Below are positions 7,654 to 29,834 of a stretch of DNA of 42,753 bases, one piece after another; within the stretch, counting starts at the first letter, position 1; each line of letters starts with the position of its first letter. The translations under genes were made by a program, and so were the position numbers. The notes under the pieces were generated by a model. That model was not told where the DNA came from. It saw nothing but the letters and a program-made list of their open reading frames with translations, and made no database searches. Source of the DNA: a virus (taxonomy: Duplodnaviria; Heunggongvirae; Uroviricota; Caudoviricetes); the IMG/VR virus record IMGVR_UViG_2663763477_000009; one strand, written 5' to 3'.

Positions 7654-7679
7654 AGGAGCCTCCTATGTCATTAATTGCG

Positions 7680-9228: not shown

Positions 9229-9231
9229 GTG

Positions 9232-9408: not shown

Positions 9409-9417
9409 ATGCCCCCC

Positions 9418-9440
9418 ATTAAAAATGGGGCCGAAGCCCC
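9418..9440 (-). terminator. Intrinsic terminator just downstream of the major capsid gene
   Basis: On the minus strand GGGGC-UUCG-GCCCC (GC stem with UUCG tetraloop) followed by AUUUUUAA; begins about 10 nt after the capsid stop. Confidence 0.55.
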
Positions 9441-9450
9441 GTTTGAATGT

Positions 9451-10590: not shown

Positions 10591-10688
10591 AATTAAATAT
10601 TCCTTAAAAATTTGCGTAATTGTGAATAGATGGAGTAATGAGCTATCCAGCCCTGACACCAGCTCCCATCCGGAAGCTGACAAATGTG

Positions 10689-11453: not shown

Positions 11454-11557
11454 ATTAGTACCTGGTTTAAGTCTTCCGACAGTTACGCTGCTCACCATCC
11501 GGATCGCAGCAATAAAAAAGGCCACCCGAAGGTAGCCTGTTGTAATAAATGATTTAT

Positions 11558-12673: not shown

Positions 12674-14060
12674 TGATTTCCATCAGCATTACACTCTGAT
12701 TTTTTAATTCATCGATCACTTCCTCTGGACGGGAATCCTGATCGATAAATTTCAACGCCTGCAACACCCGAACCGCATCAATCTGACGTATATCACCGCC
12801 CTGACGCAATGACTGAACAGCCAGCGCGGAGGATGAGTCAAACACCTGGGCAGATACATCCAGTTCAGTGCGCACATCCACATTGCCACCGCAACTCTCT
12901 CCGATCCATTCCGCCATTATCTGGAGAATATTATCGAGGGCATCTTCGAGGGAGTTCGCCATTGTATAAAGCGGCGAGTTTTCCTGCATTCGCTCTTCAT
13001 TAGTCTGATCAACAGATTTGGTGGATGTATTTTCAGCACGCAGAAGTTTAGCGCCGGCATGACGCATCTGATTTTCCAGCTTCTCAAGTGATGTTTCGCC
13101 AGATTCTATCGCTGCGCCACTATGTTCAACATATTCGAGGCCATTTTTTGTTCTGTCCTCAAAAATCGTAGCGGTGGATGCACCAACCGTCAGTTCTTCA
13201 TTCCTGTCCAGCCCGTAGGCCACCAGCAATGGAACGCGGGCAACATGAAGAATATTGTCCTGCTCGCTCTGGCTTTGCCAGTGCTTGATATTCAGCAAGC
13301 CAAGATTAAGCAATGGCGGTGTACCACGCATAAATCCTGTTTTCTTCGTGTACAGTGTTACCAGAGGAATATCATCACGGCTGGTATTCCATGACTCATG
13401 AAGCGTCCAGACAGATTCGCCATTAGTGCCTTCGCTACGTCGATAAATTTCAACTCGACGGGGCATAATATGGCGGATCTGCTCCACCTTCTTCTGCCCG
13501 AAATCATCACCATCAATAATGATGACCTCTTTTATACGCAAATCAGTGAGAACAACTTTCCCTTTTTCAACTTTCGATTTCCATCCAATAACCTGGCGTG
13601 GATTCAGCATCGTAACGTACGGACGACCACCGGTCGCGTTTTCATCGGCTTTTGTCCGAATCTCTTTCATATCCGTTCGTGGATAGTCCACCAGCGCATG
13701 TGCCACACCATACTGAAATGCGAGGCTGAAAAATTGCTGCGCCCACACATCCAGTCGGCTCCCCTCCATGTCGATATTTTCTGCATATTCCCTGATTTTT
13801 GCCGGCGTTTCCTCACTCAATACTGTCGGCTCTGCAAATATGCGCCCAATATTTTGCTTGATGCTTTCTTCATACACAGGAAGTAGCGTAGCCACAGACA
13901 GGCGTTTTTTATAAGCGTCTTCATCTTCGTTAGGCCATTTTGGGAGATAATTTTCCCCCTGCCTGCGCATTTCAAGCGTACCGCCCATCAGTGCGTCGTT
14001 AATATCCCACGCCTCCAGCATATCGTTATAGTCGAGGTTGGGTGTTGATATATCAGCCAT
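12654..14060 (-). CDS. Portal protein
   Basis: 468-aa acidic protein immediately downstream of the large terminase gene. Confidence 0.85.
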   Translation of the reverse strand: MADISTPNLDYNDMLEAWDINDALMGGTLEMRRQGENYLPKWPNEDEDAYKKRLSVATLLPVYEESIKQNIGRIFAEPTVLSEETPAKIREYAENIDMEGSRLDVWAQQFFSLAFQYGVAHALVDYPRTDMKEIRTKADENATGGRPYVTMLNPRQVIGWKSKVEKGKVVLTDLRIKEVIIIDGDDFGQKKVEQIRHIMPRRVEIYRRSEGTNGESVWTLHESWNTSRDDIPLVTLYTKKTGFMRGTPPLLNLGLLNIKHWQSQSEQDNILHVARVPLLVAYGLDRNEELTVGASTATIFEDRTKNGLEYVEHSGAAIESGETSLEKLENQMRHAGAKLLRAENTSTKSVDQTNEERMQENSPLYTMANSLEDALDNILQIMAEWIGESCGGNVDVRTELDVSAQVFDSSSALAVQSLRQGGDIRQIDAVRVLQALKFIDQDSRPEEVIDELKNQSVMLMEINDANRE

Positions 14061-14062
14061 AA

Positions 14063-15373
14063 TTAAATCCGAAGTGATGTGACTCTTCCGGTCGGTTTGA
14101 CAATAGGGAATTGCTTAACGATGAAATAACCTCCGGCATCATTCGGGTGATCATTGCCAGATTTTTTATCAGGCTCCCCCTTCTCATCCCAGACCTGTTG
14201 CTCCAGAGATTCGGCATATAACGGGCAACGCTTCACATTAACTTTATAGCGACGCTCACCATTGGCATTGCAGAACATTGCATTCATTGAGTTAACGCGA
14301 TCTTTTACTGGCGGGTTCGAGCTGTTCACCACAACGTTAAAACCAGCCTGCTTAAGCTGGGCTATATCCGTCGTACTTGCGTTACTTGATTTTCTGGAAT
14401 CCCCGGAAGCATCTGGATAAATATAAATTTCCCTCACTTTCCGGTAATCATTCCCATCATACAGCCAGAAGCGTTCTTTAATGATGCGGATCATATCCGG
14501 CGTATCGTAGGCATTGATGATTTCAGTTACCGCACATGGAAGCCCCAAACGCAGCACATGGACGATTCCCGCCATCTTTCCAACGTTAAAATCCATCCCA
14601 ATATAAATCGGCTCCCCTGGCTGCTCCACTTCTTCGCAATTATTCAGTTTCCGGTCAAACTGATGGTAAACAGTACCACTTGTCAGGTTAGTAAACTGTC
14701 CTCGAAGATAGGCTTTAATCAGCTCTGGAGGGTATGATTCAAGAAGCGAAGGAATGTAATCTGCTGGCAGGTTCTTTTCATTATCGAAAGTAGATGCCTG
14801 CACCAGACCATACAGTGAGGCCAGCTCTGTTTTTTCACGCACGGCTTTAACAAACTGCTCGTAGACAAATTTGAATCCTTCCGGCGTGGTTGTAACGTCA
14901 ATACCGTTGCGAAGTCCATCAATCTTATAACGCATACGTGCAATTATCTTGCGCCACGCCGTTCTGGCTTTTTCCTTCGGCAAAATGTCCAGTTCATCCA
15001 CCAACGCATTACCAATTTTGAAACCGACGATCGTTTGTGGCTTCTCCATCGATCTGCAGATAGTGGTTCCCCGATACTGGCGTCCGTAATAAAAGTGAAC
15101 CTCTTTATTTCCCTCATTAATTTTTACGTTCAATCCCCAGTCAGCAGCAACTTCTTCCACTGTAGGGTAAAAAATATCGCGAATTTGGGGATACGTTGGC
15201 GCAAAATATCCCTGATTTATACCTGGATGCTCCCAAATCCCCTTGCATATGCCGCCACACCCAACCCATGTTTTGCCCGAGCCAAAACCAGCAATATAGG
15301 CTTTAAATTTATGGGGCATTGAAAGAAATCGCGCCTGAGGCACATTAAGCGTCGGAGAGATCATCTTCATCAC
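14063..15373 (-). CDS. Terminase large subunit
   Basis: Walker A-like GFGSGKT near the N-terminus, acidic nuclease-type C-terminal half, lies upstream of the portal gene. Confidence 0.9.
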   Translation of the reverse strand: MMKMISPTLNVPQARFLSMPHKFKAYIAGFGSGKTWVGCGGICKGIWEHPGINQGYFAPTYPQIRDIFYPTVEEVAADWGLNVKINEGNKEVHFYYGRQYRGTTICRSMEKPQTIVGFKIGNALVDELDILPKEKARTAWRKIIARMRYKIDGLRNGIDVTTTPEGFKFVYEQFVKAVREKTELASLYGLVQASTFDNEKNLPADYIPSLLESYPPELIKAYLRGQFTNLTSGTVYHQFDRKLNNCEEVEQPGEPIYIGMDFNVGKMAGIVHVLRLGLPCAVTEIINAYDTPDMIRIIKERFWLYDGNDYRKVREIYIYPDASGDSRKSSNASTTDIAQLKQAGFNVVVNSSNPPVKDRVNSMNAMFCNANGERRYKVNVKRCPLYAESLEQQVWDEKGEPDKKSGNDHPNDAGGYFIVKQFPIVKPTGRVTSLRI

Positions 15374-16439
15374 TCCTTACTCTGGCATCAACCACATTAA
15401 TATTGATCGCCACAGGCTGGGGATGTTCATTATCTTCCACCGTTTCGATCTCTTTGCGCAGCTTCTGGTTTTCCATTCTGCGCCGTTCAATTTCCAGTTC
15501 CCGTAGCCGCTTATCTGCACATAAAGCCCCGCCAGCAGAAAACAAACGCAACAATTCACGCCGGGCGGCAGCCTTATCCTCCAGCAGGATCTCAACGCCG
15601 AATTTTCCGAATTTTGCCCCTGCATATAATTGCCGCGCATCCCCATCAAGCAGAGTGGTATCAGCCATATAAAGCTGTCCCGTTCCCTCACCGCAGCACT
15701 TCGGGCAGTCCGGATTGGGTATGGCGTTATCAACAAAGCCGAGGCCTCCATATTCCGGTTCGGGTTTGCCATCTCTGGAAGCCTGCGCCGCTGCCTTGTC
15801 GAATTCTGCTATATCGCGCCACTGGTAGAGATGATTCTCGACCCAGCAATAACGGCAGTTAACACGGCGAAATTGTGCAAGCTGATTGGGGTCGGCCAGG
15901 ACAATAGCCATCAACTGACTCACTAGTAAATCCAGGTCTGCGGTATAGCGTTTCTGGTACTGATTGCGGAAGTAGCTGATAGCGCGAAAAACCCTGGCAT
16001 TTCTAAGCATACGACTGGCGTTGCTGTTAGCTGTCGCACCTTGCCCCTCATAACCGGCTAGTCGGTACGCCTCTGTCGGCTTTTTACCCTGAGCAACAAG
16101 CATCGCAAACTTAGCCTGCTGGTCAGAAATGCCGAATTCATCGGGACAGAACGAAAATTCCTCCGCGTCGCCCTCATTCAGGCCCGCATCGAATACTGGC
16201 TTTTTTTCCTGAGATTTTTCGTTCCGCTTTTGTGCAGTCTGCGCAGATTTTTTCTGCGCACTTTTTTGCGCAGTTTTGCACATTTCTGTCTGCGCATTTT
16301 TCGGAGTTTTTTTGATGTAACGACGGGCTGTTGCGTAATTCAGTCCCCTTGCTTCACACCATGCCACCGGAGATATACCGGAGCGGGTGTATTCAGCAAT
16401 ATACTCCTGCTGCAACGCCCCCCAGTCCGGTCTGCTCAT
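15345..16439 (-). CDS. Terminase small subunit (putative, N-terminal HTH)
   Basis: 364 aa, overlaps the start of the large terminase gene; N-terminal DNA-binding-like region and Cys-containing C-terminal region. Confidence 0.55.
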   Translation of the reverse strand: MSRPDWGALQQEYIAEYTRSGISPVAWCEARGLNYATARRYIKKTPKNAQTEMCKTAQKSAQKKSAQTAQKRNEKSQEKKPVFDAGLNEGDAEEFSFCPDEFGISDQQAKFAMLVAQGKKPTEAYRLAGYEGQGATANSNASRMLRNARVFRAISYFRNQYQKRYTADLDLLVSQLMAIVLADPNQLAQFRRVNCRYCWVENHLYQWRDIAEFDKAAAQASRDGKPEPEYGGLGFVDNAIPNPDCPKCCGEGTGQLYMADTTLLDGDARQLYAGAKFGKFGVEILLEDKAAARRELLRLFSAGGALCADKRLRELEIERRRMENQKLRKEIETVEDNEHPQPVAININVVDARVRSDEDDLSDA

Positions 16440-16442
16440 CAG

Positions 16443-16694
16443 TTAGTCCTGATTTTTATCCACCCTGAGTAGTTCGCGCAGAGCAAAGGCATCCCCTTTT
16501 CTGGCAAGCTTAAACAATGCCGCTCGTAACTCGGCTTCACCTTTCGCTCTGCCCTTACGGATGGCCGCATAAAAATCTGTCATTGCTTCCCGATTTTCTT
16601 TCAGTCGGTTCAGATCAACATCCAGAACGTCAGCGATTTGTTGTGCAGTCATCCGGCACGCTGCCAGAGACTCGACTTTCGAATACGGAATCAT
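16443..16694 (-). CDS. Small hypothetical protein, possibly DNA-binding
   Basis: 83-aa basic helical ORF immediately upstream of the terminase genes. Confidence 0.4.
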   Translation of the reverse strand: MIPYSKVESLAACRMTAQQIADVLDVDLNRLKENREAMTDFYAAIRKGRAKGEAELRAALFKLARKGDAFALRELLRVDKNQD

Positions 16695-17580
16695 TTGTCA
16701 CCCCCATTGATATGCAGGGTGTCTTCTTCCTGTATTTTTCGTGAAGGATTTTTACTGCAGCGTTGTTCCAGGTGACCTGATGGTGAATGCGTTTATGACT
16801 GGCACCCATAAGTGAGATTTTTACGCACGACGGCGCATACATGACGGAGTAAAAACTTTTAACGTAGGTTCCGGAATCCAGATACAGCTCGGTCATTCCG
16901 CCGCTGTTTTTCTGCGTCTGTTTCTGCCCTAACTGGACAGCACCGATCGTCATAAACAATTCACCACAGCGACCGAGATTCGTGTACGTATTCACATCCT
17001 CGTTAATGCGCCCCATGAATGAGAACGGTCGATCAACCGAACAGATAAAGCTGTTCATTGCCTTGCGTTTCACCCACGAAGCATGGCCGCCATTGTCACC
17101 AAGAAAATCCCCGCCCTGCGACATAGCGATGGAAAGAGCAGGTATTGATTCGTAGTACGCAAGCATTTCAGAAAGGATCTCATCCAGTTTCCTTATCGGG
17201 AAATAGGCCTGGTCATAGTTGCGATCCACCCGAAACTGGAACTCGTGATAATCATCATCGAGCTGAATGAAGTATTTACACCCGACCAGTTTTGCCTGGT
17301 CGAAACAGGCATTACGGGCGTAAAAAATTGAGCGGCGGTCACTAAAATTATCGGCTTCGTCAAAACGACTAGCAATATCGGCTTTGGAAAATACCAGCAC
17401 CTGTTCACCAAATTCAGCCATGTACTGATGCCGTGTCTTATCTTCATCATCAACAACGATAAAAATTTTCCCGGTATAGCCAGCACGACGCAACGTCCGG
17501 TAAGTCAGAACTTTGTCCGGTCGCCCGTGAGTCAGAATAAAGGCGCAAAAATCATCACGCATATTCCTCCTCCCCGCCAT
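16630..17580 (-). CDS. Hypothetical protein with GT-A-like features (possible nucleotide-sugar transferase)
   Basis: 316 aa with an N-terminal ILTHGRP...IFIVVDDED segment and a downstream QLDDDY (DxD-like) motif; functional call is tentative. Confidence 0.35.
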   Translation of the reverse strand: MAGRRNMRDDFCAFILTHGRPDKVLTYRTLRRAGYTGKIFIVVDDEDKTRHQYMAEFGEQVLVFSKADIASRFDEADNFSDRRSIFYARNACFDQAKLVGCKYFIQLDDDYHEFQFRVDRNYDQAYFPIRKLDEILSEMLAYYESIPALSIAMSQGGDFLGDNGGHASWVKRKAMNSFICSVDRPFSFMGRINEDVNTYTNLGRCGELFMTIGAVQLGQKQTQKNSGGMTELYLDSGTYVKSFYSVMYAPSCVKISLMGASHKRIHHQVTWNNAAVKILHEKYRKKTPCISMGVTNDSVFESRVSGSVPDDCTTNR

Positions 17581-18343
17581 GCATGATCTCCACCATGCGC
17601 TGCGTCATTCGGACAAATCCATTTTCAATAGCCTGCTGATAATCAATGATCACCAGCGCCGACTCCTCGAAAAGGCACTGAATTTCAGCGGGGGCATGAG
17701 CGTAATAGTCCGCAATTCTGCTGAAATTAAACACCGTGTGACGTTCTGCTGCACACAGGAGGAATTTCTCAATATCAGGATCAAGGGACGCCGAACGTAT
17801 CCGGCTGATCAGCTCCTGAGTTTTCGTATCGTCGTACAGTTCACTGATATCCGGTTTACCGCCTGACGGCTCATAAACAGGCGTATCAATTTTCGTCGTA
17901 TACGGCTCCTCCTCATTTCCTGTACCGGGCAAAACATCCGTCAACAGTTCATCAATTTCTGCCGGGATGAAGCCTGTCAGGGAGACATCAAAATCAGCAT
18001 TGATTAGGTCCGACAGCTCCATCCGCAACAGATCTTCATCCCAGCCAGCATTCATCGGCAGGCGATTATCTGCCAGGCGGTACGCCTTTTTCTGCTCATC
18101 CGTCAGGCCAGACAGAACAATGACCGGAACAGAATCCATTTTGAGCATTTCAGCCGCCATAACACGACCGTGACCCGCAATAATTTCGCCCTTTTCGTCA
18201 ATCAGCACCGGATTAGTCCAGCCGAATTGCTTAATACTTTCTACCAGTTGTGCCACCTGCTCAGTACTGTGCGTCCTGGCGTTGTGCGCATACGGTGACA
18301 ATTCTTGTAATGGGCGATAGACTATCTTTAATTTCTCGCTCAT
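17555..18343 (-). CDS. ParB/Srx-like nuclease domain protein
   Basis: N-terminal region IVYRPLQELSPYAHNARTHS...IIAGHGR typical of the ParB N-terminal fold; acidic C-terminus. Confidence 0.75.
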   Translation of the reverse strand: MSEKLKIVYRPLQELSPYAHNARTHSTEQVAQLVESIKQFGWTNPVLIDEKGEIIAGHGRVMAAEMLKMDSVPVIVLSGLTDEQKKAYRLADNRLPMNAGWDEDLLRMELSDLINADFDVSLTGFIPAEIDELLTDVLPGTGNEEEPYTTKIDTPVYEPSGGKPDISELYDDTKTQELISRIRSASLDPDIEKFLLCAAERHTVFNFSRIADYYAHAPAEIQCLFEESALVIIDYQQAIENGFVRMTQRMVEIMHGGEEEYA

Positions 18344-18480
18344 ACAGCCTTGCTTTATGAATAAAACGCACCCCAGCAGCCAGTGCTACTGGGGGCGGAG
18401 GTGTTGCTGGTAAAGTTAGGTATTGGATCAATGAGTGAGTCAACATAATATTAAACTCACAATTATAAATCAGCCATATA

Positions 18481-19956
18481 TTAGGAGCGCCAAAAAAAAC
18501 CTGAAAACAATATAATAACAGGATAAATTTCAAGGCGACCAAGAATCATAGCTATGCACATTAAATATTTTGCAATGTCATTAAGCACTCCGAATGACGA
18601 TGCAGTAGCCCCAAAACCTAATCCCATATTATTAATACATGCAGCCACTGTTGCAAATGATGTAAGAAAATCATATCCCATACCATTTAACACCAGTATA
18701 AAAAACACCGTGAAGAGAGTATAAAGAAAAAAGAAACTCCATACAGACCTCATTACACGATCTGTAACTATCTTCCCTCCTACATTTACACTCAACAACG
18801 CTCTGGGATGAGAAAGCTGATTTATCTCGTGTTTGCTTTGTTTGAAAAGTATAAGAAATCGAAGTGACTTAATTCCACCACAGGTTGAACCTATACATCC
18901 CCCAAAGAAACTTGACAACAGCAAAAACACTATCGTGTGCGTGGGCCAGTTTGCATAATCCTGCGTAGCTAAACCATTATCAGTGAGCATGGAGCTGGCA
19001 AGAAAAAACGAATGAATAAAACTTCCATGCAAGTCATACATACCTATATGCCAGACCTGGAAAGAGGTAACAATGATCACCCCTAAGGCTATTAACAGAA
19101 AGAAACGAAGTTCAATATCTCTGATTAAAGGTTTTATCGTTTTTCTGCTAATAACAATATACCAAAGAGTGAAGTTGAAAGCCGATAGCAGGGAAAAAGA
19201 ACCAGCCACCAGCTCAACCAAATAGTTATTAAAATATCCGATACTCTCGCTATGAGTTGAGAAACCACCAAGCGAAACTGTGGAAATCCCGTGACAAATA
19301 GCATCAAACAAAGGCATTCCTGCAAGTCTATAACAGACAATACAAGCAATACCTAATAAAGAATAAGTTATCCACAGTGTCCGTGACGTATCGGCCAGGC
19401 GGGGAGTGAGTTTGTCATCCTTAAATGGCCCCGGCATTTCTGACTGATAAAGCTTTGCACCACCAATACCCAATAATGGCAATACTGCAACCGCCAGAAC
19501 AATAACTCCTAAACCACCTATAAAATTTAACTGTGACCGATAGTACAAATATGCCCGAGGTAATGAACTAACATCATCAATTACAGTTGCTCCTGTTGTT
19601 GTTATTCCAGAAACCCCTTCAAACAGAGCATCAATGAACGTTAAATTAAGTTCTGAGTCAATCCATAAAGGGAATGCACTAATAACAGAAAACAAAATCC
19701 AAAACATTACAATTATAATAAACCCATCACGGGTACGTAATTGAATGCCAGATTTCTTAGTTGTATACCACGCTCCGCCACCAATGCAAAAAAATATAAC
19801 GAAAGTTATAAAGAAAACGAACAGGCTTTTTTCTTTATAAAACAATGCTACAACCATTGGTGGCAACATTGAAAGACTATAGAGCCAAACCAGGAACCCA
19901 CACATATGAGTAACAACTCTTACATGAGATGTATTCATATCTAAATATTCTTTCAA
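18481..19956 (-). CDS. trkG: Trk-family potassium uptake membrane protein TrkG (copy 1, full length)
   Basis: 491-aa polytopic membrane protein that I recognise as the prophage-borne TrkH paralogue TrkG. Confidence 0.9.
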   Translation of the reverse strand: MKEYLDMNTSHVRVVTHMCGFLVWLYSLSMLPPMVVALFYKEKSLFVFFITFVIFFCIGGGAWYTTKKSGIQLRTRDGFIIIVMFWILFSVISAFPLWIDSELNLTFIDALFEGVSGITTTGATVIDDVSSLPRAYLYYRSQLNFIGGLGVIVLAVAVLPLLGIGGAKLYQSEMPGPFKDDKLTPRLADTSRTLWITYSLLGIACIVCYRLAGMPLFDAICHGISTVSLGGFSTHSESIGYFNNYLVELVAGSFSLLSAFNFTLWYIVISRKTIKPLIRDIELRFFLLIALGVIIVTSFQVWHIGMYDLHGSFIHSFFLASSMLTDNGLATQDYANWPTHTIVFLLLSSFFGGCIGSTCGGIKSLRFLILFKQSKHEINQLSHPRALLSVNVGGKIVTDRVMRSVWSFFFLYTLFTVFFILVLNGMGYDFLTSFATVAACINNMGLGFGATASSFGVLNDIAKYLMCIAMILGRLEIYPVIILFSGFFWRS

Positions 19957-20075
19957 TTATAACCACCTTGCTGCAATATTATGATTATACTGTATAAAAT
20001 TTAACTCCTCTTAGATCTTACTTCACTGTTCCTTATGAAACAATCATCAAAATGAATCATATTGTAGTTAAGATT

Positions 20076-20552
20076 TTACTTTAAACACTGCTCGGTTATG
20101 TATTGCTGAGCACCTTCAAGTTGGGCCTGCATCATTACCAGTCGTTCCCGGAGGGTGAAATAATCCCGTTCAGCGGTGTCTGCCAGTCGGGGGCTGGTTG
20201 CATTATCCACGCCGGAGGCGGTGGTGGCTTCACGCACTGACTGACAGACTGCTTTGATGTGCAACCGACGACGACCAGCGGCAACATCATCACGCAGAGC
20301 ATCATTTTCAGCTTTCGCATCAGCTAACTCCTTCGTGTATTTTGCATCGAGCGCAGCAACATCACGCTGACGCATCTGCATGTCAGTAATTGCCGCGTTC
20401 GCCAGCTTCAGTTCTCTGGCATTTTTGTCGCGCTGGGCTTTGTAGGTAATGGCGTTATCACGGTAATGATTAACAGCCCATGACAGGCAGACGATGATGC
20501 AGATAACCAGAGCGGAGATAATCGCGGTGACTCTGCTCATTGCTGCCCCCAC
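20076..20552 (-). CDS. rzpR: Spanin inner-membrane subunit Rz (copy 1; without an adjacent holin/endolysin)
   Basis: 158 aa with an N-terminal TM segment and coiled-coil periplasmic domain; Rz1 is embedded in the +1 frame. Confidence 0.85.
20135..20320 (-). CDS. rzoR: Spanin outer-membrane lipoprotein Rz1 (copy 1), embedded in Rz
   Basis: 61 aa with lipobox VVGC and a Pro-rich tail ([14 protein letters not shown]), entirely inside the Rz frame. Confidence 0.8.
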
Positions 20553-20583
20553 AAACAGACTTCACGCTCAATCTCACGACGAG

Positions 20584-22053
20584 TCATGAGACCTTTCCAT
20601 TGCTTACCGCCAGCATATGTCCAGCGACGTAGCTGACAAGAATCATAGCTATGCACATTAAATATTTTGCAATGTCATTAAGCACTCCGAATGACGATGC
20701 AGTAGCCCCAAAACCTAATCCCATATTATTAATACATGCAGCCACTGTTGCAAATGATGTAAGAAAATCATATCCCATACCATTTAACACCAGTATAAAA
20801 AACACCGTGAAGAGAGTATAAAGAAAAAAGAAACTCCATACAGACCTCATTACACGATCTGTAACTATCTTCCCTCCTACATTTACACTCAACAACGCTC
20901 TGGGATGAGAAAGCTGATTTATCTCGTGTTTGCTTTGTTTGAAAAGTATAAGAAATCGAAGTGACTTAATTCCACCACAGGTTGAACCTATACATCCCCC
21001 AAAGAAACTTGACAACAGCAAAAACACTATCGTGTGCGTGGGCCAGTTTGCATAATCCTGCGTAGCTAAACCATTATCAGTGAGCATGGAGCTGGCAAGA
21101 AAAAACGAATGAATAAAACTTCCATGCAAGTCATACATACCTATATGCCAGACCTGGAAAGAGGTAACAATGATCACCCCTAAGGCTATTAACAGAAAGA
21201 AACGAAGTTCAATATCTCTGATTAAAGGTTTTATCGTTTTTCTGCTAATAACAATATACCAAAGAGTGAAGTTGAAAGCCGATAGCAGGGAAAAAGAACC
21301 AGCCACCAGCTCAACCAAATAGTTATTAAAATATCCGATACTCTCGCTATGAGTTGAGAAACCACCAAGCGAAACTGTGGAAATCCCGTGACAAATAGCA
21401 TCAAACAAAGGCATTCCTGCAAGTCTATAACAGACAATACAAGCAATACCTAATAAAGAATAAGTTATCCACAGTGTCCGTGACGTATCGGCCAGGCGGG
21501 GAGTGAGTTTGTCATCCTTAAATGGCCCCGGCATTTCTGACTGATAAAGCTTTGCACCACCAATACCCAATAATGGCAATACTGCAACCGCCAGAACAAT
21601 AACTCCTAAACCACCTATAAAATTTAACTGTGACCGATAGTACAAATATGCCCGAGGTAATGAACTAACATCATCAATTACAGTTGCTCCTGTTGTTGTT
21701 ATTCCAGAAACCCCTTCAAACAGAGCATCAATGAACGTTAAATTAAGTTCTGAGTCAATCCATAAAGGGAATGCACTAATAACAGAAAACAAAATCCAAA
21801 ACATTACAATTATAATAAACCCATCACGGGTACGTAATTGAATGCCAGATTTCTTAGTTGTATACCACGCTCCGCCACCAATGCAAAAAAATATAACGAA
21901 AGTTATAAAGAAAACGAACAGGCTTTTTTCTTTATAAAACAATGCTACAACCATTGGTGGCAACATTGAAAGACTATAGAGCCAAACCAGGAACCCACAC
22001 ATATGAGTAACAACTCTTACATGAGATGTATTCATATCTAAATATTCTTTCAA
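20584..22053 (-). CDS. trkG: TrkG copy 2 with a replaced C-terminus (last 19 aa exchanged for 17 unrelated aa at the duplication junction)
   Basis: Identical to copy 1 until ...CIAMIL, then diverges where the unit joins the endolysin 3' fragment. Confidence 0.8.
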
Positions 22054-22172
22054 TTATAACCACCTTGCTGCAATATTATGATTATACTGTATAAAATTTA
22101 ACTCCTCTTAGATCTTACTTCACTGTTCCTTATGAAACAATCATCAAAATGAATCATATTGTAGTTAAGATT

Positions 22173-22649
22173 TTACTTTAAACACTGCTCGGTTATGTAT
22201 TGCTGAGCACCTTCAAGTTGGGCCTGCATCATTACCAGTCGTTCCCGGAGGGTGAAATAATCCCGTTCAGCGGTGTCTGCCAGTCGGGGGGAGGCTGCAT
22301 TATCCACGCCGGAGGCGGTGGTGGCTTCACGCACTGACTGACAGACTGCTTTGATGTGCAACCGACGACGACCAGCGGCAACATCATCACGCAGAGCATC
22401 ATTTTCAGCTTTCGCATCAGCTAACTCCTTCGTGTATTTTGCATCGAGCGCAGCAACATCACGCTGACGCATCTGCATGTCAGTAATTGCCGCGTTCGCC
22501 AGCTTCAGTTCTCTGGCATTTTTGTCGCGCTGGGCTTTGTAGGTAATGGCGTTATCACGGTAATGATTAACAGCCCATGACAGGCAGACGATGATGCAGA
22601 TAACCAGAGCGGAGATAATCGCGGTTACTCTGTTCATTGCTGACCCCAC
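22173..22649 (-). CDS. Spanin inner-membrane subunit Rz (copy 2, part of the lysis cassette)
   Basis: 158 aa; differs from copy 1 at three residues; its start overlaps the endolysin stop. Confidence 0.85.
22232..22417 (-). CDS. Spanin outer-membrane lipoprotein Rz1 (copy 2), embedded in Rz
   Basis: 61-aa lipoprotein; one Ala-to-Pro difference from copy 1. Confidence 0.8.
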
Positions 22650-23131
22650 AAACAGATTTCACGCTCAATCTCACGACGAGTCATGAGACCTTTCCATTGC
22701 TTACCGCCAGCATATGTCCAGCGACGTAGCTGATCACATGCGCCTTTGATATCGCCCTGGTTTATTTTGCGAAGAAGCGTCGATGTTCTGAAATTGCCAG
22801 CACCCACGTTGTAAACGAATGAGTAAAGAGCGCCGCGCGTTGTTTCCGGTATATCGACTTTGATGTACGGGTTAATTTGTCTGGCGACAGTGGCAAGGTC
22901 TTTATTCAAGAGTGTTTTGCATTCTGCTTTGGTATACGTTTTACCGAGCATGATGTCTTTTCCTGTATGCCCGTGACATACAGTCCATACACCAACAATA
23001 TCTTTGTATGGTATGTAGCTGACACCTTCCAGACCATCGTTACCACTTGGGCCAGTGATTAACACTGATGCTATAGCAATTGCTCCGCCACCAATAGCAG
23101 CAGCAACGACTTTTCGTAATGATGGAGGCAT
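22634..23131 (-). CDS. SAR endolysin (phage-21 R-type lysozyme)
   Basis: 165 aa with an N-terminal Gly/Ala-rich signal-anchor-release segment ([18 protein letters not shown]) followed by a lysozyme domain. Confidence 0.85.
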
Positions 23132-23346
23132 TATTCACCTCTCGCAGCCTTGCGCTTATCTTCTTTAATCTTGAAATAAAGGTTTGTCAGGTACGTCAGC
23201 AGGCCAAATACCAGACTACCCAGCACACCGATTGCAGCCCACTGTGACGGAGTTACTCTATCGAGCAACTGTAAAAACCAGTAGCCAGCACTGCCTGCGG
23301 AGGTGCCGTAGGCAATGCCTGTTGAAATTTTGTCCATGGATTTCAT
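23131..23346 (-). CDS. Pinholin (phage-21 S-type) with a dual-start motif
   Basis: Reads [14 protein letters not shown]... with two TM segments; Met1 and Met4 give the antiholin/holin pair; the track ORF extends a further 19 codons upstream. Confidence 0.8.
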
Positions 23347-23445
23347 AGCCTCACCTCCGCACGGAACGGATGGCATAGTTATTATGTGTAGGCTTTCAGA
23401 CACATCAATCAGAGCCTTAATTGATATATATGCTGGAGACGATGC

Positions 23446-23472
23446 AATATAAAAAGCTCGCCGTAGCGAGCT
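23446..23472 (-). terminator. Intrinsic terminator between the lipoprotein morons and the holin gene
   Basis: Perfect 7-bp stem agctcgc/gcgagct with loop cgta, followed on the minus strand by UUUUAUAUU. Confidence 0.5.
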
Positions 23473-23597
23473 AATAAAATGTATTTCTCTGATATTATGT
23501 TTATTTGTATTAGCTCAGACTTGACATCACAGGTTTCGTATATAGAACATCATCAAATCTGTCAGTTTGCTATGAATGAGATATAGTAATTGAAGAG

Positions 23598-23993
23598 CTA
23601 ACCTCGCATGTCAAAGCCAGATTTCTGAAAATCTCTGTAGACTTCCGGATTGTTGAAGGCCGGAAATTTGGCTTTATGAGCTGCGGACTTTATCGCTTCG
23701 CAATAGGCTTTATCACCGTTACTGGTAGATATTTTTAACGCCGTGCCATCCTGAGAGAATTCCATATGCAACCTGCATTTTTTCCCTTTCCAGTTATGCG
23801 GCTCATCAAGTTTGGCATTAATTGCAGCTCTGATTCCCCGCGCTTGCGCCCCCCATTCATCCTGATCATCCCAGCGTCCTGAACTGCAACTACCTGTAGC
23901 AGTAGTTTTGTGGCAATCTGAAGGGTGTAAAGGTGTGCATCCCGCAACAAAACCGACCCAAAAAGTCAACATAACGATTTTCTTTAATCCCAC
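23598..23993 (-). CDS. Outer-membrane lipoprotein with a TolA domain-III-like C-terminal domain (divergent paralogue)
   Basis: GTG start with GAGGAG RBS; signal peptide plus lipobox VAGC; C-terminal domain aligns with the pattern of the downstream paralogue (KxCxLxM...G...L...CEAIKSAAHKAKFPAF...EVYRDFQ). Confidence 0.7.
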   Translation of the reverse strand: MGLKKIVMLTFWVGFVAGCTPLHPSDCHKTTATGSCSSGRWDDQDEWGAQARGIRAAINAKLDEPHNWKGKKCRLHMEFSQDGTALKISTSNGDKAYCEAIKSAAHKAKFPAFNNPEVYRDFQKSGFDMRG

Positions 23994-24143
23994 TTCTTGC
24001 TCCTCAATCCATTAAAATCTCAGCAATAGTAGTTGTTACGTCCGCCACTGGCTCAGAGCTGACTATCCGCTAAATTTAGCTCAGTGCCGTAGCTGTGTCA
24101 GAACAAACCTAAGCCGAAACCGTTTATTACAAAACAATAAATA

Positions 24144-24572
24144 TCAGGGTTTAAAATCCAGCACCCCATTTTGAAATACTTTATATACTTCCGGCGAAGG
24201 GGGGGCAGGTATATCAGCATTCTTTATCGCATTCATCGCTTCACGACATAAATCGAGGTCTCCACTTTCTCTTTTAACCTCCAGTAGAAGGCCATTCGGG
24301 GCCATATGCATTCTCAGTGTACACTCTTTTCCTGAATACTTACTCGCATCCCCGAACTGTTTTTCGATGGCGCTCTTGATTTGATGGGCATACAGACGGA
24401 TATCCTCACTAACATCAGAAGTACGTTCAGATGAACTCACATACTGTGTCTCTATTGCTTTATCGGAGTAATATGATGTACGGTCATGATAATTTGTCGA
24501 TACAGCATCAGTGCACCCGATAATAATCCCACTAATAATCAACGTAAGAATTGATGCGCTACGAAAACCCAT
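24144..24572 (-). CDS. Outer-membrane lipoprotein with a TolA domain-III homologue
   Basis: Signal peptide plus lipobox IIGC; the C-terminal 85 aa (YAHQIKSAIEKQFGDASKYSGKECTLRMHMAPNGLLLEVK...PSPEVYKVFQNGVLDFKP) closely parallel my recollection of the C-terminus of E. coli TolA. Confidence 0.75.
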   Translation of the reverse strand: MGFRSASILTLIISGIIIGCTDAVSTNYHDRTSYYSDKAIETQYVSSSERTSDVSEDIRLYAHQIKSAIEKQFGDASKYSGKECTLRMHMAPNGLLLEVKRESGDLDLCREAMNAIKNADIPAPPSPEVYKVFQNGVLDFKP

Positions 24573-25508
24573 TTTTCCTCACATATGTCATATAGTAAAG
24601 GATTATATATACCGTTGTTTTGGACGCTCAAACAGCGAATCAGATCAAATAAAACGCACATTTGTTAACATTTACACAAAGTCTGCGTGGGATATTCTGA
24701 AAGAATATCCATAATGTGGAGAGAATCTATTGAAGTGCATGGTGCCGGGTGCCTCCCGGTGAACAAAATGTTCGTGATACCTGTCGGCGACAGAAAAGGT
24801 TAATGGTATCACCCCACCGCACAGGGGGATTCACCATGCAGGAGTTTTCTTAGCAAACTCACTGCGCGCCCGGCAACTCCCAACCACATAAAATGCGGAG
24901 TTTGTGGCATTTATGCATATAACTCGCAGGAATTATCTTAAAAAACTGATGTCGATCCGGATTAAAAAGAAGCAGGTCATCATCAGATGACTGGAAAAAA
25001 GGAAAACAAAAAATACTCATCATACAGTTTTGATTGCAGGGATGAGCCTGCTATGCACAATATGCAGAATATAAGCAAGATAAAAATATGCAGGCATATT
25101 ATTTCGGATCTTGTTATTAACACAACCTTTTTAATAATCATTTGGCATACAATAAACCAGCCCAAAAAGAACCGCCTAAACAGGCGGTTGGTCAATACAA
25201 AGGATGCTTCGTCTTTATTATAGTAATCTGAGGCGTCGGGTGTCTTGTATCAGACAACATATTGTCCCGCTAAACAGCGAATTACAAACCACCCTGCAAT
25301 GATCTCTCATCTCATTTTATATGAGTTGACGACATCAGGATAACGCATCATCAGCCCCTGCCAAGAAATATCAAAACTCCCGCCAGCAATGTGTTATCAC
25401 AATATTGTAAAAAAAACACAGCACCGAAACTATAACTGGTCTCTGTTATAATTTGGAGCAGAAAGACCAGTTGCCCAACTAGCAGCATTCTCCCCTGCTT
25501 TCCTGACG

Positions 25509-25537
25509 TAAAAAAACCGCATTAAGCGGTTTTTTTA
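25509..25537. terminator. Bidirectional intrinsic terminator hairpin (candidate tR' of the late operon)
   Basis: A7-accgc-attaa-gcggt-T7: a GC stem flanked by an A-run and a T-run, about 80 nt downstream of the Q-like gene. Confidence 0.55.
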
Positions 25538-25616
25538 CGATGTCCATGTCTGCAATCCGCCTCGCGATACAGCTTTGCGAAGCATAGCAAAATTGAAGCA
25601 GTTTATACGTAAGAAA

Positions 25617-26159
25617 TCAAGCCATTTTCTCAGCAAATGATTCACGCATGGGAATATATAGGGCATACTCAGCAACAGCTAACCAATTAGCAATCCGTTT
25701 TTCGCATGTGCTAAAACACCACTCTGGGTGTGCATCATTTAGCAATTCAGCCATTTTGCGCTTAGTCATCCCCCGCCCTTCATAGCGTTGCCGGAGAATG
25801 CAAATCAATCCTGGATGCTCTGCCAGCACCTCACTTATGACTCGATCAATACATAACGCCTCTGCATCAGTACAATGCGCCAGCCAGCTCTTTTGCTTGC
25901 CGTTGATCATCTCTCGCAAAAACGCTTCCAGCTCAGCTTTCTCTATTCCCGCTTTTTTCATTCTGCGCAGGGCTTCATTAATGGCTGTTTTCGTCAGTTT
26001 TTTGGATGCCAACAACTGATTGAACATATTCCCTGACCTGCCACCGCCAATATACGACCAGCGCCCCCACATACGTAGTTTTCCCTGAATCCAGACACTT
26101 TCCAGCGTGGTGAGGCGAAGGTGTTCTCCGCTTTTTCCTGTATTCGTTGGGTAAATCAT
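25617..26159 (-). CDS. Late-gene antiterminator Q-like protein (putative)
   Basis: 180 aa, Cys pairs, located at the end of the nin region directly upstream of the late/lysis region; assigned mainly by position. Confidence 0.5.
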   Translation of the reverse strand: MIYPTNTGKSGEHLRLTTLESVWIQGKLRMWGRWSYIGGGRSGNMFNQLLASKKLTKTAINEALRRMKKAGIEKAELEAFLREMINGKQKSWLAHCTDAEALCIDRVISEVLAEHPGLICILRQRYEGRGMTKRKMAELLNDAHPEWCFSTCEKRIANWLAVAEYALYIPMRESFAEKMA

Positions 26160-26446
26160 AAATGACCTTTCTTTCTCCAGATTTCTTGTGTGCGAAAAAC
26201 CCCTTCAGCATGCATCAGGCGCAATTCTTCTTTGGTGTAATCGCTGGTTTTTACCCGCCCGTCGATTAGATCGTGGCATGAGCTACAGGCTATCGCCGCC
26301 TGCATATCATGTGGTTTTGTCGCTGTTCCGCACGTCCCCGCCAGCCTGTAATGCGCCAGCACAGAGGTTTCGGGATTGTGATTGCAGTAGCCAGGGATTC
26401 TGATCTGGCACATCTGGCCTTTAGCCGCTTTACGTAAATTCACCAT
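26156..26446 (-). CDS. YbcO-like nin-region protein (DUF1364, zinc-binding)
   Basis: 96 aa with the pattern CQIRIPGYCNHNPETSVLAH...CGT..KP...AIACSSCHD that I recognise from the DLP12 ybcO family. Confidence 0.65.
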   Translation of the reverse strand: MVNLRKAAKGQMCQIRIPGYCNHNPETSVLAHYRLAGTCGTATKPHDMQAAIACSSCHDLIDGRVKTSDYTKEELRLMHAEGVFRTQEIWRKKGHL

Positions 26447-27045
26447 TACGCAAACTCCAGTAGTTGTGCGGCCACATTTTCAACTTCCTCCTGAGAGGAG
26501 AATTTACGGAACAGAATCCAGTTCCACAGCACATTCAGTACAGATTTATAAACCTGCTGAAACTCGACTTCGTCCATATTCGCAAAAGCGATGGATTTTG
26601 CCCGACGCCCACGGCTACCGTCCGGATAAATATGCTCGGTGTAAAATCCGGCCTGAATGGTTACCCACTCGCGGAAAGCCTCAAACGACTTTAGCAACGC
26701 CGTATCCCGGGTTCTACGAGTCGCAACGGTGTTAAGGTATTGCTCTGCGGCATCACTCAGGGCTGGCGTGTGTTCCCGACCAACTGATTCGCACAGGTAA
26801 TCAACGAAACCAGACAGCAGTTCTCGTTCGCGAGGCGTGATCGCCCCACCGACCGGAGTCCAGTAATCGAAACCCAGTTGCAGGAGTTTGAAAAAACGCT
26901 TGTGGAATGCGTAGTTACACACACGCTTAAAGTCTGCGTGTATCCACTCACCTATTTTGATTTGATGCAGAAAATCGCAACTCTCCGGCGTCGCCGGGAG
27001 AAGTAATCCGGAAGAGGTTTGTTTGACCAGTTGTATATGCGCCAT
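26446..27045 (-). CDS. nin-region hypothetical protein (DUF1367-like)
   Basis: 199-aa ORF translationally coupled to the ybcO-like gene. Confidence 0.5.
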   Translation of the reverse strand: MAHIQLVKQTSSGLLLPATPESCDFLHQIKIGEWIHADFKRVCNYAFHKRFFKLLQLGFDYWTPVGGAITPRERELLSGFVDYLCESVGREHTPALSDAAEQYLNTVATRRTRDTALLKSFEAFREWVTIQAGFYTEHIYPDGSRGRRAKSIAFANMDEVEFQQVYKSVLNVLWNWILFRKFSSQEEVENVAAQLLEFA

Positions 27046-27325
27046 TTCTCAATCTCTCGATGGCGCAGCGCAGCAGATGCCAGTTGTTCAGGCTGACGAA
27101 TAAAGTATAAATAAACTGGCTATGGTGTAAAGCCCCACATAGCATGAACAAACACTACATATCAAATAGCTGGTACAAGGATAGAAATACGACACTTATT
27201 ATTAAAAACGATTAGATAAATTACATTTTAATGTTATGCAAAAGTTCTTTTTTATCATAACATTTCAATAAAAGCATTACAGATGCAATCATCCCGTCAT
27301 CATCAATTATTTAAGGTGGTTAAAC

Positions 27326-27412
27326 ATGGAAAATAACAAGTTCGCACATCTCGCTCCTTTTTTATCCGTAATCCTTTTCGCTTGTTGTTTTATATGGGCA
27401 TTATTTTTATAA
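27326..27412 (+). CDS. Small hydrophobic peptide (28 aa), candidate membrane peptide or type-I-toxin-like
   Basis: ATG preceded by AAGGTGG at about 6 nt; reads MENNKFAHLAPFLSVILFACCFIWALFL (one predicted TM helix); sits in an AT-rich intergenic region. Confidence 0.35.
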   Translation: MENNKFAHLAPFLSVILFACCFIWALFL

Positions 27413-27820
27413 AGTAGCCACATGATAAGTTGCTGGAATCATATTTCCCACTCAAGTCATTAACATTTGATAAGATATATCTAAAAGGACGCCTTTACAT
27501 TATTTATGCGTATATAATTTATTTATATACACAGTAAAGGTATCCTGGGAAAATATTTATCGTTAAAAAATACATCATAAATAATTAAGCTGAAATTTCA
27601 GAACACAACTAATACACACAATAAGGTTCAGTAACAGTAATCTATGTGGACTACATCGAGATTTTTTGATTAAACTTTAATAACTTATTCCTAACACACA
27701 GAATGCATAAACTAAAAGTAAAACAAATAGTTATACGAAAAACAACCATATTTATTCTATCTTCTCCTCTAATCAACATATCAATTATGTGTTTCATAAC
27801 AGCTTGACATAACCCTCCAA

Positions 27821-27843
27821 AAGATGCATTTTTAATGCATGTT
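27821..27843 (+). promoter_or_regulatory. NsrR-type operator (11-1-11 inverted repeat) upstream of the yeaR-like gene
   Basis: AAGATGCATTT-T-TAATGCATGTT, close to the NsrR consensus as I recall it; a TTGACA hexamer lies just upstream at about 27804-27809. Confidence 0.5.
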
Positions 27844-27858
27844 TTGGAGGAGGTGGTT

Positions 27859-28197
27859 ATGACACACAAGAGAATTCCTAAAGATTGGGTAATCAAACGC
27901 TCAACTCCGTTCTTCACAAAAGAGAACGTACCTTCAGCGTTATTAACACATCATAATACAGCAGCAGGTGTTTTTGGGCAGTTGTGCGTAATGGAAGGCA
28001 CTGTAACATATTATGGTTTTACTGATGAGAATGCTACTGAACCGGAGATAAAAGTAGTCATTAATGCTGGCGCTTTTGCAACAAGCCCACCACAATACTG
28101 GCACCGTGTTGAACTAAGCGATGATGCTCAGTTTAATATTAACTTTTGGGTCGCTCCAGACTTTTCGGGCGAAAAAGTCTATAGCACCAAAAAATAG
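27859..28197 (+). CDS. YeaR-like protein (DUF1971 family)
   Basis: 112 aa from the ATG after a GGAGGAGG RBS; RSTPFFTKENVP...GQLCVMEGTVTYYGF...FNINFWVAPDF parallels the chromosomal YeaR sequence as I recall it. Confidence 0.75.
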   Translation: MTHKRIPKDWVIKRSTPFFTKENVPSALLTHHNTAAGVFGQLCVMEGTVTYYGFTDENATEPEIKVVINAGAFATSPPQYWHRVELSDDAQFNINFWVAPDFSGEKVYSTKK

Positions 28198-28226
28198 ATG
28201 ATCATATTAAAAATGCTTTAACAGTC

Positions 28227-28263
28227 AGACCCGGCAGGGCTATCCCCGACGGGTCTCATTTTT
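28227..28263 (+). terminator. Terminator-like hairpin after the yeaR-like gene
   Basis: Stem agacccg/cgggtct around a structured loop, followed by TCATTTTTG. Confidence 0.4.
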
Positions 28264-28817
28264 GTAAATATATTGGTTCTACATTGACAGGAGACTTCAA
28301 CCATAAGAAGTAATCTGAATACTTGAGCAATAAATTTACTTAAGATTAATGAGCGCACCTTGCCGGACAAAGATAAACCAAGGTAACACCTTTTTTCTAG
28401 CCAGTATGTAATCAATCAGAAAGCCGCTCCATAAGAACAACAGCAAGACAATAAATTGCCATTACAGCCGCAATAGCCAGCGCACATTTGAGAACCAGCA
28501 CGACAACCCCCTGTATTAGACGCACACCAGTCCTGATAAATATGAGGCTGTCTCGTCAGTGATTCAATACAACTATTGGGTATAGTTTCTGTGATTTTAT
28601 TCTGTAGAAATGGAACACAACAACCAGTCACCACCAGCACTTCCTTAAATGCTCTAAGTCAGAAACAAGCCAACATTTTAGTCCGCTTTGAGCGATCTGC
28701 AGACATTGCTAGCAGCCTTCTGTGTGAATTCTCAGGGAGCAGGTCGGCATAGCATCACGTTGAGGCTCTTACCCTACTTGTTCACACCAACCCTAACTCC
28801 ACAGACTGATTCATAAA

Positions 28818-29819: not shown

Positions 29820-29834
29820 GTATGACCTGCGCTA

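Follow-up and report, generated by a model that had tools for sequence, protein, structure and literature searches.

A head-to-tail Rz/Rz1-trkG repeat in a Rac-like prophage contig, with draft scaffolding as its favoured origin

The lysis-trkG module and its repeat in the window

The lysis-trkG module of Rac prophages is found in E. coli K-12 (rzpR/rzoR-trkG-ynaK), Shigella sonnei 2015C-3566 and E. coli HKUOPY1 and FORC_081 in the order holin, endolysin, Rz/Rz1, trkG, ParB-like ynaK, TAGT and terminase, and the stretch of DNA analysed here (the window, 42,753 nt) holds a module of the same kind. In all of these the module is present exactly once and none displays a trkG|endolysin junction, unlike the window. 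For the transporter TrkH, a conserved arginine of helix D4M2 has been assigned a role in gating (PMC5449183). That the window represents a Rac-like lambdoid prophage is indicated by recE/recT, kilR, sieB, an integrase end, the lysis-trkG-ynaK order and the Pfam families of neighbouring genes, with the 866-aa ORF at 37368-39968 matching the annotated Rac prophage of E. coli HKUOPY1 (recE, recT, kilR, sieB, racC) at 99.3%.

Self-comparison of the window recovered a direct repeat with an offset of 2097 in perfect register (Table 1), with the genes on the minus strand and each unit running from the final 100 bp of the endolysin gene through Rz (154 aa), which embeds Rz1 (61 aa), to trkG. The copies are identical at 2090 of 2097 bases, and the head-to-tail repeat is confirmed as a property of the supplied string, far beyond chance. 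All seven mismatches (copy-A coordinates 20194, 20195, 20198, 20529, 20536, 20546 and 20560) are confined to the Rz/endolysin-3' end, and identity between the units is 100% over the last 1654 bp, comprising the 3' part of Rz, the intergenic spacer and trkG codons 1-466. Congruent with this, the first-pass annotation of the sequence had described a unit of about 2.1 kb with these contents twice head-to-tail, trkG portions that translate identically (which holds up to residue 466), and an upstream trkG in which the last 19 codons are exchanged for 17 codons of the endolysin 3' fragment, the downstream copy keeping its native end.

Table 1. Features of the repeat region, in window coordinates
Feature	Coordinates	Strand	Basis or remark
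Terminator-like hairpin, after native trkG only, outside the repeat unit	18371..18394	-	consensus scan, candidate only
Native full-length trkG, 485 aa	18481..19938	-	end-to-end alignment with Vibrio TrkH 4J9U/3PJZ, E = 2e-121
Repeat unit A (downstream): endolysin 3' fragment, Rz-A/Rz1-A, trkG codons 1-466, running on into the native trkG end	18540..20636	-	seven sites differ from unit B
Rz copy A, 154 aa, allele MSRV...DNATSP	20076..20540	-	ORF and repeat alignment
Rz1 copy A, 61 aa, A43 in place of P43	20135..20320	-	translation
Endolysin 3' fragment of unit A, orphan, 100 bp	20537..20636	-	repeat alignment
Chimeric trkG', 483 aa: native residues 1-466 plus 17 codons of endolysin fragment	20584..22035	-	ORF translation
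Junction, trkG codon 466/467 joined to endolysin 3' fragment	20636..20637	-	no microhomology; 20636 is N in public contig
Repeat unit B (upstream in gene orientation): endolysin last 100 bp, Rz-B/Rz1-B, trkG codons 1-466	20637..22733	-	self-comparison; match to CP022457.1
Rz copy B, i-spanin, 154 aa, allele MNRV...DNAASP	22173..22637	-	ORF; Pfam
Rz1 copy B, o-spanin lipoprotein, 61 aa, other frame within Rz	22232..22417	-	ORF; Rz1 Pfam family in relatives
Endolysin, complete copy, 165 aa, Phage_lysozyme	22634..23131	-	ORF; Pfam family

The native TrkG tail reads GRLEIYPVIILFSGFFWRS (19 aa), and the 17 aa that end the chimeric copy are read in another frame of the endolysin fragment. Residues 7-485 of native TrkG pair with 4-485 of VpTrkH, GRLE (R468) included, and the alignment thereby retains the four-repeat pore of PF02386 with the C-terminal helix D4M2 and the conserved gating arginine. 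The string does contain two trkG ORFs, but to call them two transporter genes, as had been done from the sequence initially, is an overstatement: in the upstream protein residues 467-485 are swapped for unrelated sequence, R468 is lost, and with it the arginine-bearing end of D4M2. Compositionally, trkG is an AT-rich insert (33-42% GC vs about 48% in the flanks). Scanning for promoters and terminators returned no more hits than shuffled sequence did.

Rz/Rz1 alleles and single-copy relatives

Both copies encode embedded spanins akin to the two-component Rz/Rz1 system of lambda, with an N-terminal membrane anchor in Rz (PF03245) and with Rz1 (PF06085), which lies wholly inside Rz in the other frame, featuring a lipobox-like LVVVGC and a proline-rich region; the PF06085 family was assigned on identical relatives. 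The first-pass annotation had listed the changes as Rz A3S, S6N and T to A and Rz1 A to P. Counted from the ATG, the protein differences between A and B amount to Rz S2N and T115A and Rz1 A43P, and 'A3S' belongs to the endolysin overlap that precedes the real start of Rz. The same annotation had termed the additional spanins an orphan pair, a designation that does not fit, as this pair is in the same late-operon orientation and is not preceded by a terminator-like site.

Judged by sequence comparison, S2N, T115A and A43P are common natural variants and neither copy is unusual. Both copy-A patches recur verbatim in many other lambdoid Rz genes, the seven sites occur in at least six combinations among single-copy Rz-trkG prophages, and each Rz allele is intact, natural and also seen single-copy next to trkG. 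These observations agree with the initial proposal that the Rz ends are diverged alleles, rather than a fresh identical duplication. Since natural Rz polymorphism accounts for the seven differences, two Rz alleles must have been present among the reads. In the gene index, the exact Rz-A protein is restricted to 4 contigs and to only two isolate assemblies, and the exact Rz1-A protein is called as a gene on one other contig, there in a single-copy Rz1-trkG arrangement. Sequencing errors or random mutations were ruled out as the source of the copy-A differences, since both patches are found verbatim in many phage contigs, as was an origin of copy A from copy B recombined with an Rz paralogue of 87-93% identity, because such a donor would add dozens of mismatches.

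Related prophages were compared, as the first-pass annotation had proposed. The closed genome of Shigella sonnei 2015C-3566 (CP022457.1) has the same prophage with one module, identical to copy B plus the native trkG end, and differs from window positions 7555-30440 only by 5 scattered SNPs and the 7 A/B sites, with 100% identity to 20637-24000 (unit B and its upstream flank). Copy B together with the native trkG end is likewise 100% identical to intact Rac-like prophages of both S. sonnei 2015C-3566 and E. coli, and at least 40 complete E. coli genomes match unit B at 100% from Rz to the 5' part of trkG. The best match of unit A in a complete E. coli genome reaches only 99.2%. The module is single-copy in 10/10 sampled endolysin contexts (from 10,928 index blocks) and in 10/10 sampled loci around the ParB neighbour, and trkG is found more than once in at most 13 of the 1,551 trkG-positive complete genomes. 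Adjacent units were thus not recovered in the closest closed genome or in the 20/20 sampled contexts. With all relatives examined being single-copy and the junction present in no collection searched, no related genome offers an independent occurrence of the duplication.

The junction base and neighbouring drafts

The window corresponds to contig CXGV01000014.1 of draft assembly GCA_001250855.1 (window position = contig position - 2), and over 20,465 bp the two display a single difference, N in the contig and T in the window at 20636. This base (L001 position 9905) is the only N within 20.5 kb of the public contig, and coincides with the base that opens copy A at the junction, in what is the sole public record holding the tandem structure. 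The sequence context is GATTCTTG-x-CAGCTACG, or with a second pair of flanks ...GCTATGATTCTTG-x-CAGCTACGTCGC..., where x denotes the base that is N in the contig; microhomology was looked for at the junction and none is present.

Searches with exact and N-tolerant patterns returned the junction in 0 of 5,426 complete E. coli genomes and in 0 INPHARED phage and PLSDB plasmid records, and it was not found in IMG/VR, GTDB representatives or JGI metagenomes, even with N permitted at the junction base. Similarly, the chimeric TrkG whose junction codon encodes V (483 or 472 aa, for two start choices) has no exact match in a 153-billion-gene index, and therefore no indexed assembly reads T at 20636. 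The T, being in no record, is probably a filled-in N. The site is polymorphic among endolysin alleles, with T in copy B and C in L002, L027, L003, L183 and L185. Contiguous sequence through the novel junction, as a real duplication should have, is hence not seen, with N in the source contig and the T version on no record, and the N sits between duplicated blocks as anticipated for a scaffolding artefact. A -35-like TTGTCA would also arise at the junction, dependent on the doubtful T.

The two sides of the junction behave differently. On the endolysin side, the contig end falls on a polymorphic site in a break-prone region, and contig ends at polymorphic sites are typical of breaks in graph-based assembly, which counts in favour of an artefact. 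On the trkG side, no polymorphism was seen at codon 466 in 16 alignments to related loci, ruling out a known polymorphic site there, and no repeat that could account for a contig end was identified.

Similar joins are present in drafts with neighbouring accession numbers, a proximity which suggests that one assembly pipeline may be common to them. Draft L153 contains five single-N joins between non-collinear, flipped tail-gene pieces and a 622-bp exact direct repeat around 'N-76 bp-N', and draft L184 a 1688-bp head-to-tail repeat of two alleles that are 95.9% identical, with a single N directly after the first copy. The joins in L153 and L184 are of the kind expected from scaffolding, and in drafts L163 and L002 N gaps interrupt this same 3' region of the endolysin gene. 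Literature searches for the assembly accessions returned no hits.

Origin of the tandem arrangement

Aggregated, these findings point towards the tandem arrangement being an artefact of the scaffolded draft assembly, without a counterpart in the DNA of the cell, a reading to which we assign a probability of roughly 0.6. The first-pass annotation had itself named an assembly artefact as the case that would overturn its duplication, and with N at the junction and no second occurrence this has become the leading explanation. An artefact is more likely than a real duplication because the N is located exactly at the junction and every related genome examined is single-copy, and also because a real origin needs several rare events in one isolate, namely an illegitimate junction and a foreign Rz tract, with the 10 kb downstream identical to the resident prophage. 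The resident element would be an ordinary Rac-like lambdoid prophage with one endolysin-Rz/Rz1-trkG module (copy-B allele and native trkG end), and the read set would also have included another Rz allele, about 99% identical (copy A), which another related prophage, a subpopulation of recombinants or a mixed sample may have contributed. We infer that the assembler may have kept both allelic versions, each extended through the common trkG sequence, and that the scaffolder would then have placed them end to end with a single N, so that a 2097-bp segment would look duplicated, one trkG 'remodelled' and one spanin pair 'orphan'. SSPACE-type scaffolders can insert a single n between contigs when the gap estimate is non-positive. 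As in other false duplications of scaffolded drafts, near-identical blocks flank an N and the few differences sit where two alleles exist; unlike the typical case, the block is long (2.1 kb) and nothing visible explains why a contig should break at its trkG codon 466 end.

Other features speak against an artefact. Short-read graph assemblers rarely emit 1.65 kb of identical sequence twice unless depth is about 2x, and therefore a real second trkG copy, in tandem or elsewhere, may exist. A scaffolder also needs read pairs linking both ends, a true trkG|endolysin junction would be the simplest account of the upstream unit ending at codon 466, and a real junction with one allele-specific base would likewise appear as two shared graph nodes separated by a single N. 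A genuine, strain-specific tandem duplication in the late operon of a Rac-like prophage, created by homology-free recombination between trkG codon 466 and a point 100 bp before the endolysin end, is nonetheless the less probable origin. Two related phage genomes differing in their Rz allele could have recombined in this way, or a single genome could have rearranged and later acquired its downstream Rz by gene conversion from another lambdoid phage. Such an event gives the simplest structure, with every segment used once or twice and no leftover ends, and accounts for the unit end at codon 466, where polymorphism was not found; head-to-tail units, a homology-free novel junction and a fusion ORF at that junction are shared with genuine duplications by illegitimate recombination. 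The intact, natural state of both Rz alleles, each seen single-copy adjoining trkG, fits as well, Rz alleles evidently swap patches often, given the six combinations seen at the 7 sites, and a phage of about 42 kb would be only modestly burdened by 2.1 kb of additional DNA. Against it weigh the N as junction base in the source record, one copy in all relatives examined, no second occurrence in any collection searched, the requirement for at least two rare events in one isolate, and comparable false-looking repeats in the neighbouring-accession drafts. Moreover, homologous recombination is expected to remove 99.7% identical direct repeats of 2.1 kb if selection does not maintain them, and fresh genuine duplications have identical copies, unlike the two natural alleles of the window with a junction that lacks sequence support in its source record.

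Were the duplication real, Q-antiterminated late transcription would proceed from the endolysin through Rz-B/Rz1-B, a TrkG' crippled at its C-terminus, Rz-A/Rz1-A and the intact TrkG into the packaging genes. It is doubtful, though conceivable, that one homology-free crossover of two Rac-like phages left the prophage carrying two spanin pairs that both function, together with an intact TrkG and another TrkG with its last half-helix and gating arginine replaced. The altered TrkG might then be dead, or a deregulated K+/Na+ pore expressed from the prophage, and the locus would stand as a one-off structural variant in a prophage type that is very common, of modest interest and without a new mechanism, albeit a modest natural experiment on C-terminal truncation of TrkG and on spanin dosage.

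More improbable still is a duplication that is real, but not fixed or not contiguous, in which the contig would mix molecules of a heterogeneous culture (an amplified subpopulation, or two close strains with different Rz alleles) or incorporate a further Rz-trkG module located elsewhere, as in a second Rac-like element. Two Rz alleles must indeed be in the reads, two trkG places are known from few complete genomes (the at most 13/1,551 above), and one long contig of another assembly (L168/L169) has two copies of the ParB of this prophage about 21 kb apart. A near-identical second prophage or a strain mixture would however give bubbles prophage-wide, not one clean 2097-bp unit, and the scarcity of the exact Rz-A protein among isolate assemblies argues in the same direction.

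If the favoured scaffolding artefact holds, the window is a concrete case of false gene gain, a spurious transporter, spanin pair and fusion ORF having been generated where several prophage alleles coexist, and single-N joins in these drafts are to be treated as breaks. Independent of which origin applies, short Rz/Rz1 patches are shuffled among Rac-like and other lambdoid phages, with the adjacent trkG being nearly invariant.

Gene layout of the repeat in a Rac-like prophage

This prophage is of the Rac-like lambdoid type: its 866-aa ORF (37368-39968) and the early region around it align at 99.3% with the Rac prophage annotated in E. coli HKUOPY1, where recE, recT, kilR, sieB and racC are found. 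The late operon runs antiterminator-like gene, two TolA-domain genes, holin, endolysin, Rz/Rz1, trkG, ParB-like gene, TAGT and terminase. Rac-like prophage, lambda-type embedded spanins and TrkG are all ordinary family members, and the duplication is the only unusual thing among the components of the window.

A direct-repeat search and base-by-base comparison (offset 2097) recovered the head-to-tail duplication described in the first-pass annotation, as copy A and, upstream in gene order, copy B. Only seven positions mismatch (copy-A coordinates 20194, 20195, 20198, 20529, 20536, 20546 and 20560), all inside the Rz/endolysin-3′ part, and the other 1654 bp per unit, covering the Rz 3′ end, the spacer and trkG codons 1-466, are identical. 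Congruent with the end swap proposed earlier, the chimeric TrkG′ equals TrkG through residue 466, after which the native 19 residues (GRLEIYPVIILFSGFFWRS) are replaced by 17 codons of the endolysin fragment read in another frame; no microhomology was detected at the junction. The spanin substitutions noted previously were retained in part: counted from the real ATG, Rz S2N and T115A as well as Rz1 A43P are present, while the supposed A3S lies upstream of the Rz start.

Repeat units and genes of the lysis region; genes are listed in transcription order
Feature	Window coordinates	Strand	Remark
Repeat copy A	18540-20636	genes on minus	direct-repeat search
Repeat copy B	20637-22733	genes on minus	direct-repeat search
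Endolysin	22634-23131	minus	
Rz-B	22173-22637	minus	
Rz1-B	22232-22417	minus	within Rz-B
Chimeric trkG′	20584-22035	minus	
Endolysin 3′ fragment	20537-20636	minus	100 bp
Rz-A	20076-20540	minus	
Rz1-A	20135-20320	minus	within Rz-A
Native trkG	18481-19938	minus	

Single-module relatives and natural Rz alleles

The tape-measure protein of the prophage is found in 1,212 index blocks, among them the closed chromosome CP022457.1 of Shigella sonnei 2015C-3566 (PMC10924462). Comparison with Rac-like relatives spoke against two adjacent copies, as this chromosome carries one module. It shows four differing sites to window 20637-30440, and differs from 7555-20636 only at 15841 and the seven A/B sites; thus, copy B and the native trkG end are resident sequence. 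The copy-A Rz tract is the only extra information in the window. A single endolysin/Rz-trkG module was also found in 10/10 distinct endolysin contexts (10,928 blocks) and in 10/10 loci sampled around the ParB neighbour (2,966 blocks). Position 15841 of the window is different in all seven related loci compared there. Separately, four substitutions within 140 bp of a DUF1367 gene (26872-27010) set the window apart from CP022457.1 and the related loci L002 and L163; this protein allele is common to 91 index blocks, and the cluster is another short recombination patch.

Noise as the source of the seven differences was rejected, since both copy-A patches occur verbatim in many IMG/VR contigs (the 5′ patch in 32, the 3′ patch in at least 120), most of them with Rz genes only 87-93% identical overall. 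Scored in single-copy Rz-trkG prophages, the seven-site haplotypes comprise ATAA-GTC, the common copy-B form (100% in at least 40 complete genomes), GGGA-AAG (L002, L003), ATAA-AAG (L027, L184, L185), ATAC-GTC (L183) and GGGC-GTC (L125, L127, L135). GGGA-AAG is also present in L004, a short contig where a trkG match was not detected. Copy A reads GGGC-AAG, a full haplotype recovered in no complete E. coli genome (best match 98.8-99.2%). With the patches found in other phages and site combinations in single-copy prophages, the earlier proposal of two diverged natural alleles was borne out, and the view that Rz undergoes patchwise recombination across the phage population stands. L003, a metagenome contig (ENA ERZ27253073 k141_303564, 1-3295), has a copy-A-type Rz beside trkG, and its endolysin, reduced to the last ~215 bp, lies directly against early genes of opposite orientation (Ead/Ea22, DksA/TraR-type zinc finger, DUF1382); it is a deleted Rac-like remnant with another breakpoint in the endolysin 3′ part.

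Origin of the junction

Exact look-up of the Rz-A protein returned only four contigs in the 153-billion-gene index, including the draft contig CXGV01000014.1 of GCA_001250855.1 (54,203 bp). This contig is identical to window 10076-30540 (window coordinate = contig coordinate - 2) bar one position, an N at the first base of copy A, that is, at the junction (...gattcttgNcagctacg...), and the only N across those 20.5 kb. The window has T here, giving valine in the chimeric TrkG, a protein without record in the gene index under either plausible start; therefore, no indexed assembly reads T at the junction. The window is probably this draft after filling of the N. The site is itself polymorphic among endolysin alleles (T in copy B; C in L002, L027, L003, L183 and L185), and the surrounding 260-bp stretch breaks in other drafts too, with a 250-N gap in L163 (equivalent to window 22957-22700) and a 39-N gap in L002 (22689/22684).

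A 300-bp probe centred on the junction (match, coverage of at least 80%) had hits in 0/5,426 complete E. coli genomes, 0/50,697 phage records and 0/72,556 plasmids, with thousands of matches for either half alone, and neither exact nor N-tolerant junction patterns were found in IMG/VR, GTDB species representatives or JGI metagenomes. Complete E. coli genomes with trkG number 1,551 and have it at 1,564 places in total, so that more than one trkG, of whatever kind, is rare.

Most likely, the duplication is not a real feature, and the adjacency of the copies is a scaffold artefact. This reading rests on the N exactly at the join, on a polymorphic site in a break-prone stretch, on the same signature in prophage repeats of related drafts, and on the several events that a real origin needs; of the marks of a real structural variant, neither read-through of the junction by sequence nor independent occurrence was found. 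Among drafts whose accession numbers are close by (ENA prefixes CW.., CX..), L153 displays five single-N joins of tail-gene pieces, non-collinear and flipped versus the reference, as well as an exact 622-bp direct repeat around 'N-76 bp-N'. In L184, of the same assembly, two alleles that are 95.9% identical lie head to tail as a 1,688-bp repeat, and one N directly follows the first copy.

A genuine duplication in the genome is the less probable explanation, yet one that retains some likelihood, because graph assemblers seldom output 1.65 kb twice without doubled depth, because the trkG-side end at codon 466 meets no polymorphism in 16 alignments to related loci and a search for a repeat there found none, and because a single-base gap would likewise result from a true trkG/endolysin junction in which one allele-specific base separates two shared graph nodes. 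It requires, however, an illegitimate junction as well as import of a foreign Rz tract of at least 440 bp, with no change from the resident prophage over 10 kb or more further downstream. Furthermore, two 99.7% identical 2.1-kb direct repeats would be unstable, which counts against a real origin. The seven differences show two alleles among the reads, without showing their adjacency; heterogeneous or dispersed-copy scenarios are improbable.

At 13565-23234 of L153 (GCA_001261315.1 CXFX01000005.1), the tail genes of this prophage lead, through the five single-N joins, to a second lambdoid prophage whose tail module (1079-aa tape measure) is inverted, representing either a mis-scaffold or a prophage-mediated inversion. 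In another assembly, the 1-Mb contig CASDNO010000023.1 (GCA_949281855.1; 8639-50501, L168/L169) has the Rz-trkG-ParB-to-tail block of this prophage twice, ~21 kb apart. The second block begins right after a truncated tail-tip (gpJ-like) gene, and the first repeats a 257-bp endolysin segment, with one N following at position 8066 of L169. The arrangement could reflect a large partial tandem duplication, a double lysogen or a further assembly problem affecting this region.

Predicted consequences and neighbouring genes

If real, the repeat unit would lie within the Q-dependent late operon. A strong terminator-like hairpin was found only after native trkG (18394-18371), outside the unit, and late transcripts would therefore cross both units. 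Each of the two spanin pairs is intact. Vibrio TrkH (4J9U/3PJZ, E = 2e-121) and TrkG can be aligned from end to end, with the native tail MILGRLEI... against MLFGRLEI.... TrkG′ is devoid of residues 467-485, the end of helix D4M2 including the conserved arginine; in TrkH/KtrB, this arginine and an intramembrane loop together make up the gate (PMC5449183). Thus, TrkG′ would most likely be non-functional or mis-gated. Native TrkG transports K+ in a Na+-dependent manner and is partly silenced by H-NS (PMC9898762), consistent with the AT-richness of trkG (33-42% GC versus ~48% in the flanks).

The trkG 3′ segment was also detected (100% over 150 bp) on large plasmids (118-454 kb) of E. coli, Klebsiella, Enterobacter and Citrobacter; hence, Rac-type trkG also moves beyond Escherichia on plasmids or phage-plasmids. 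Between the antiterminator-like gene and the holin, two adjacent TolA C-terminal-domain genes (PF06519; 131 and 142 aa; minus strand, 23598-23993 and 24144-24572) are kept in all relatives seen, and may be inserted accessory genes, putatively interfering with Tol-dependent colicin or filamentous-phage entry. Directly downstream of trkG (16630-18343, minus), a ParB_N/Srx-like gene (262 aa, ynaK-type) and a glycosyltransferase-like PF20691 'TAGT' gene (310-316 aa) precede the terminase; in the late operon of Rac-like phages, the two may form a pair for DNA modification.
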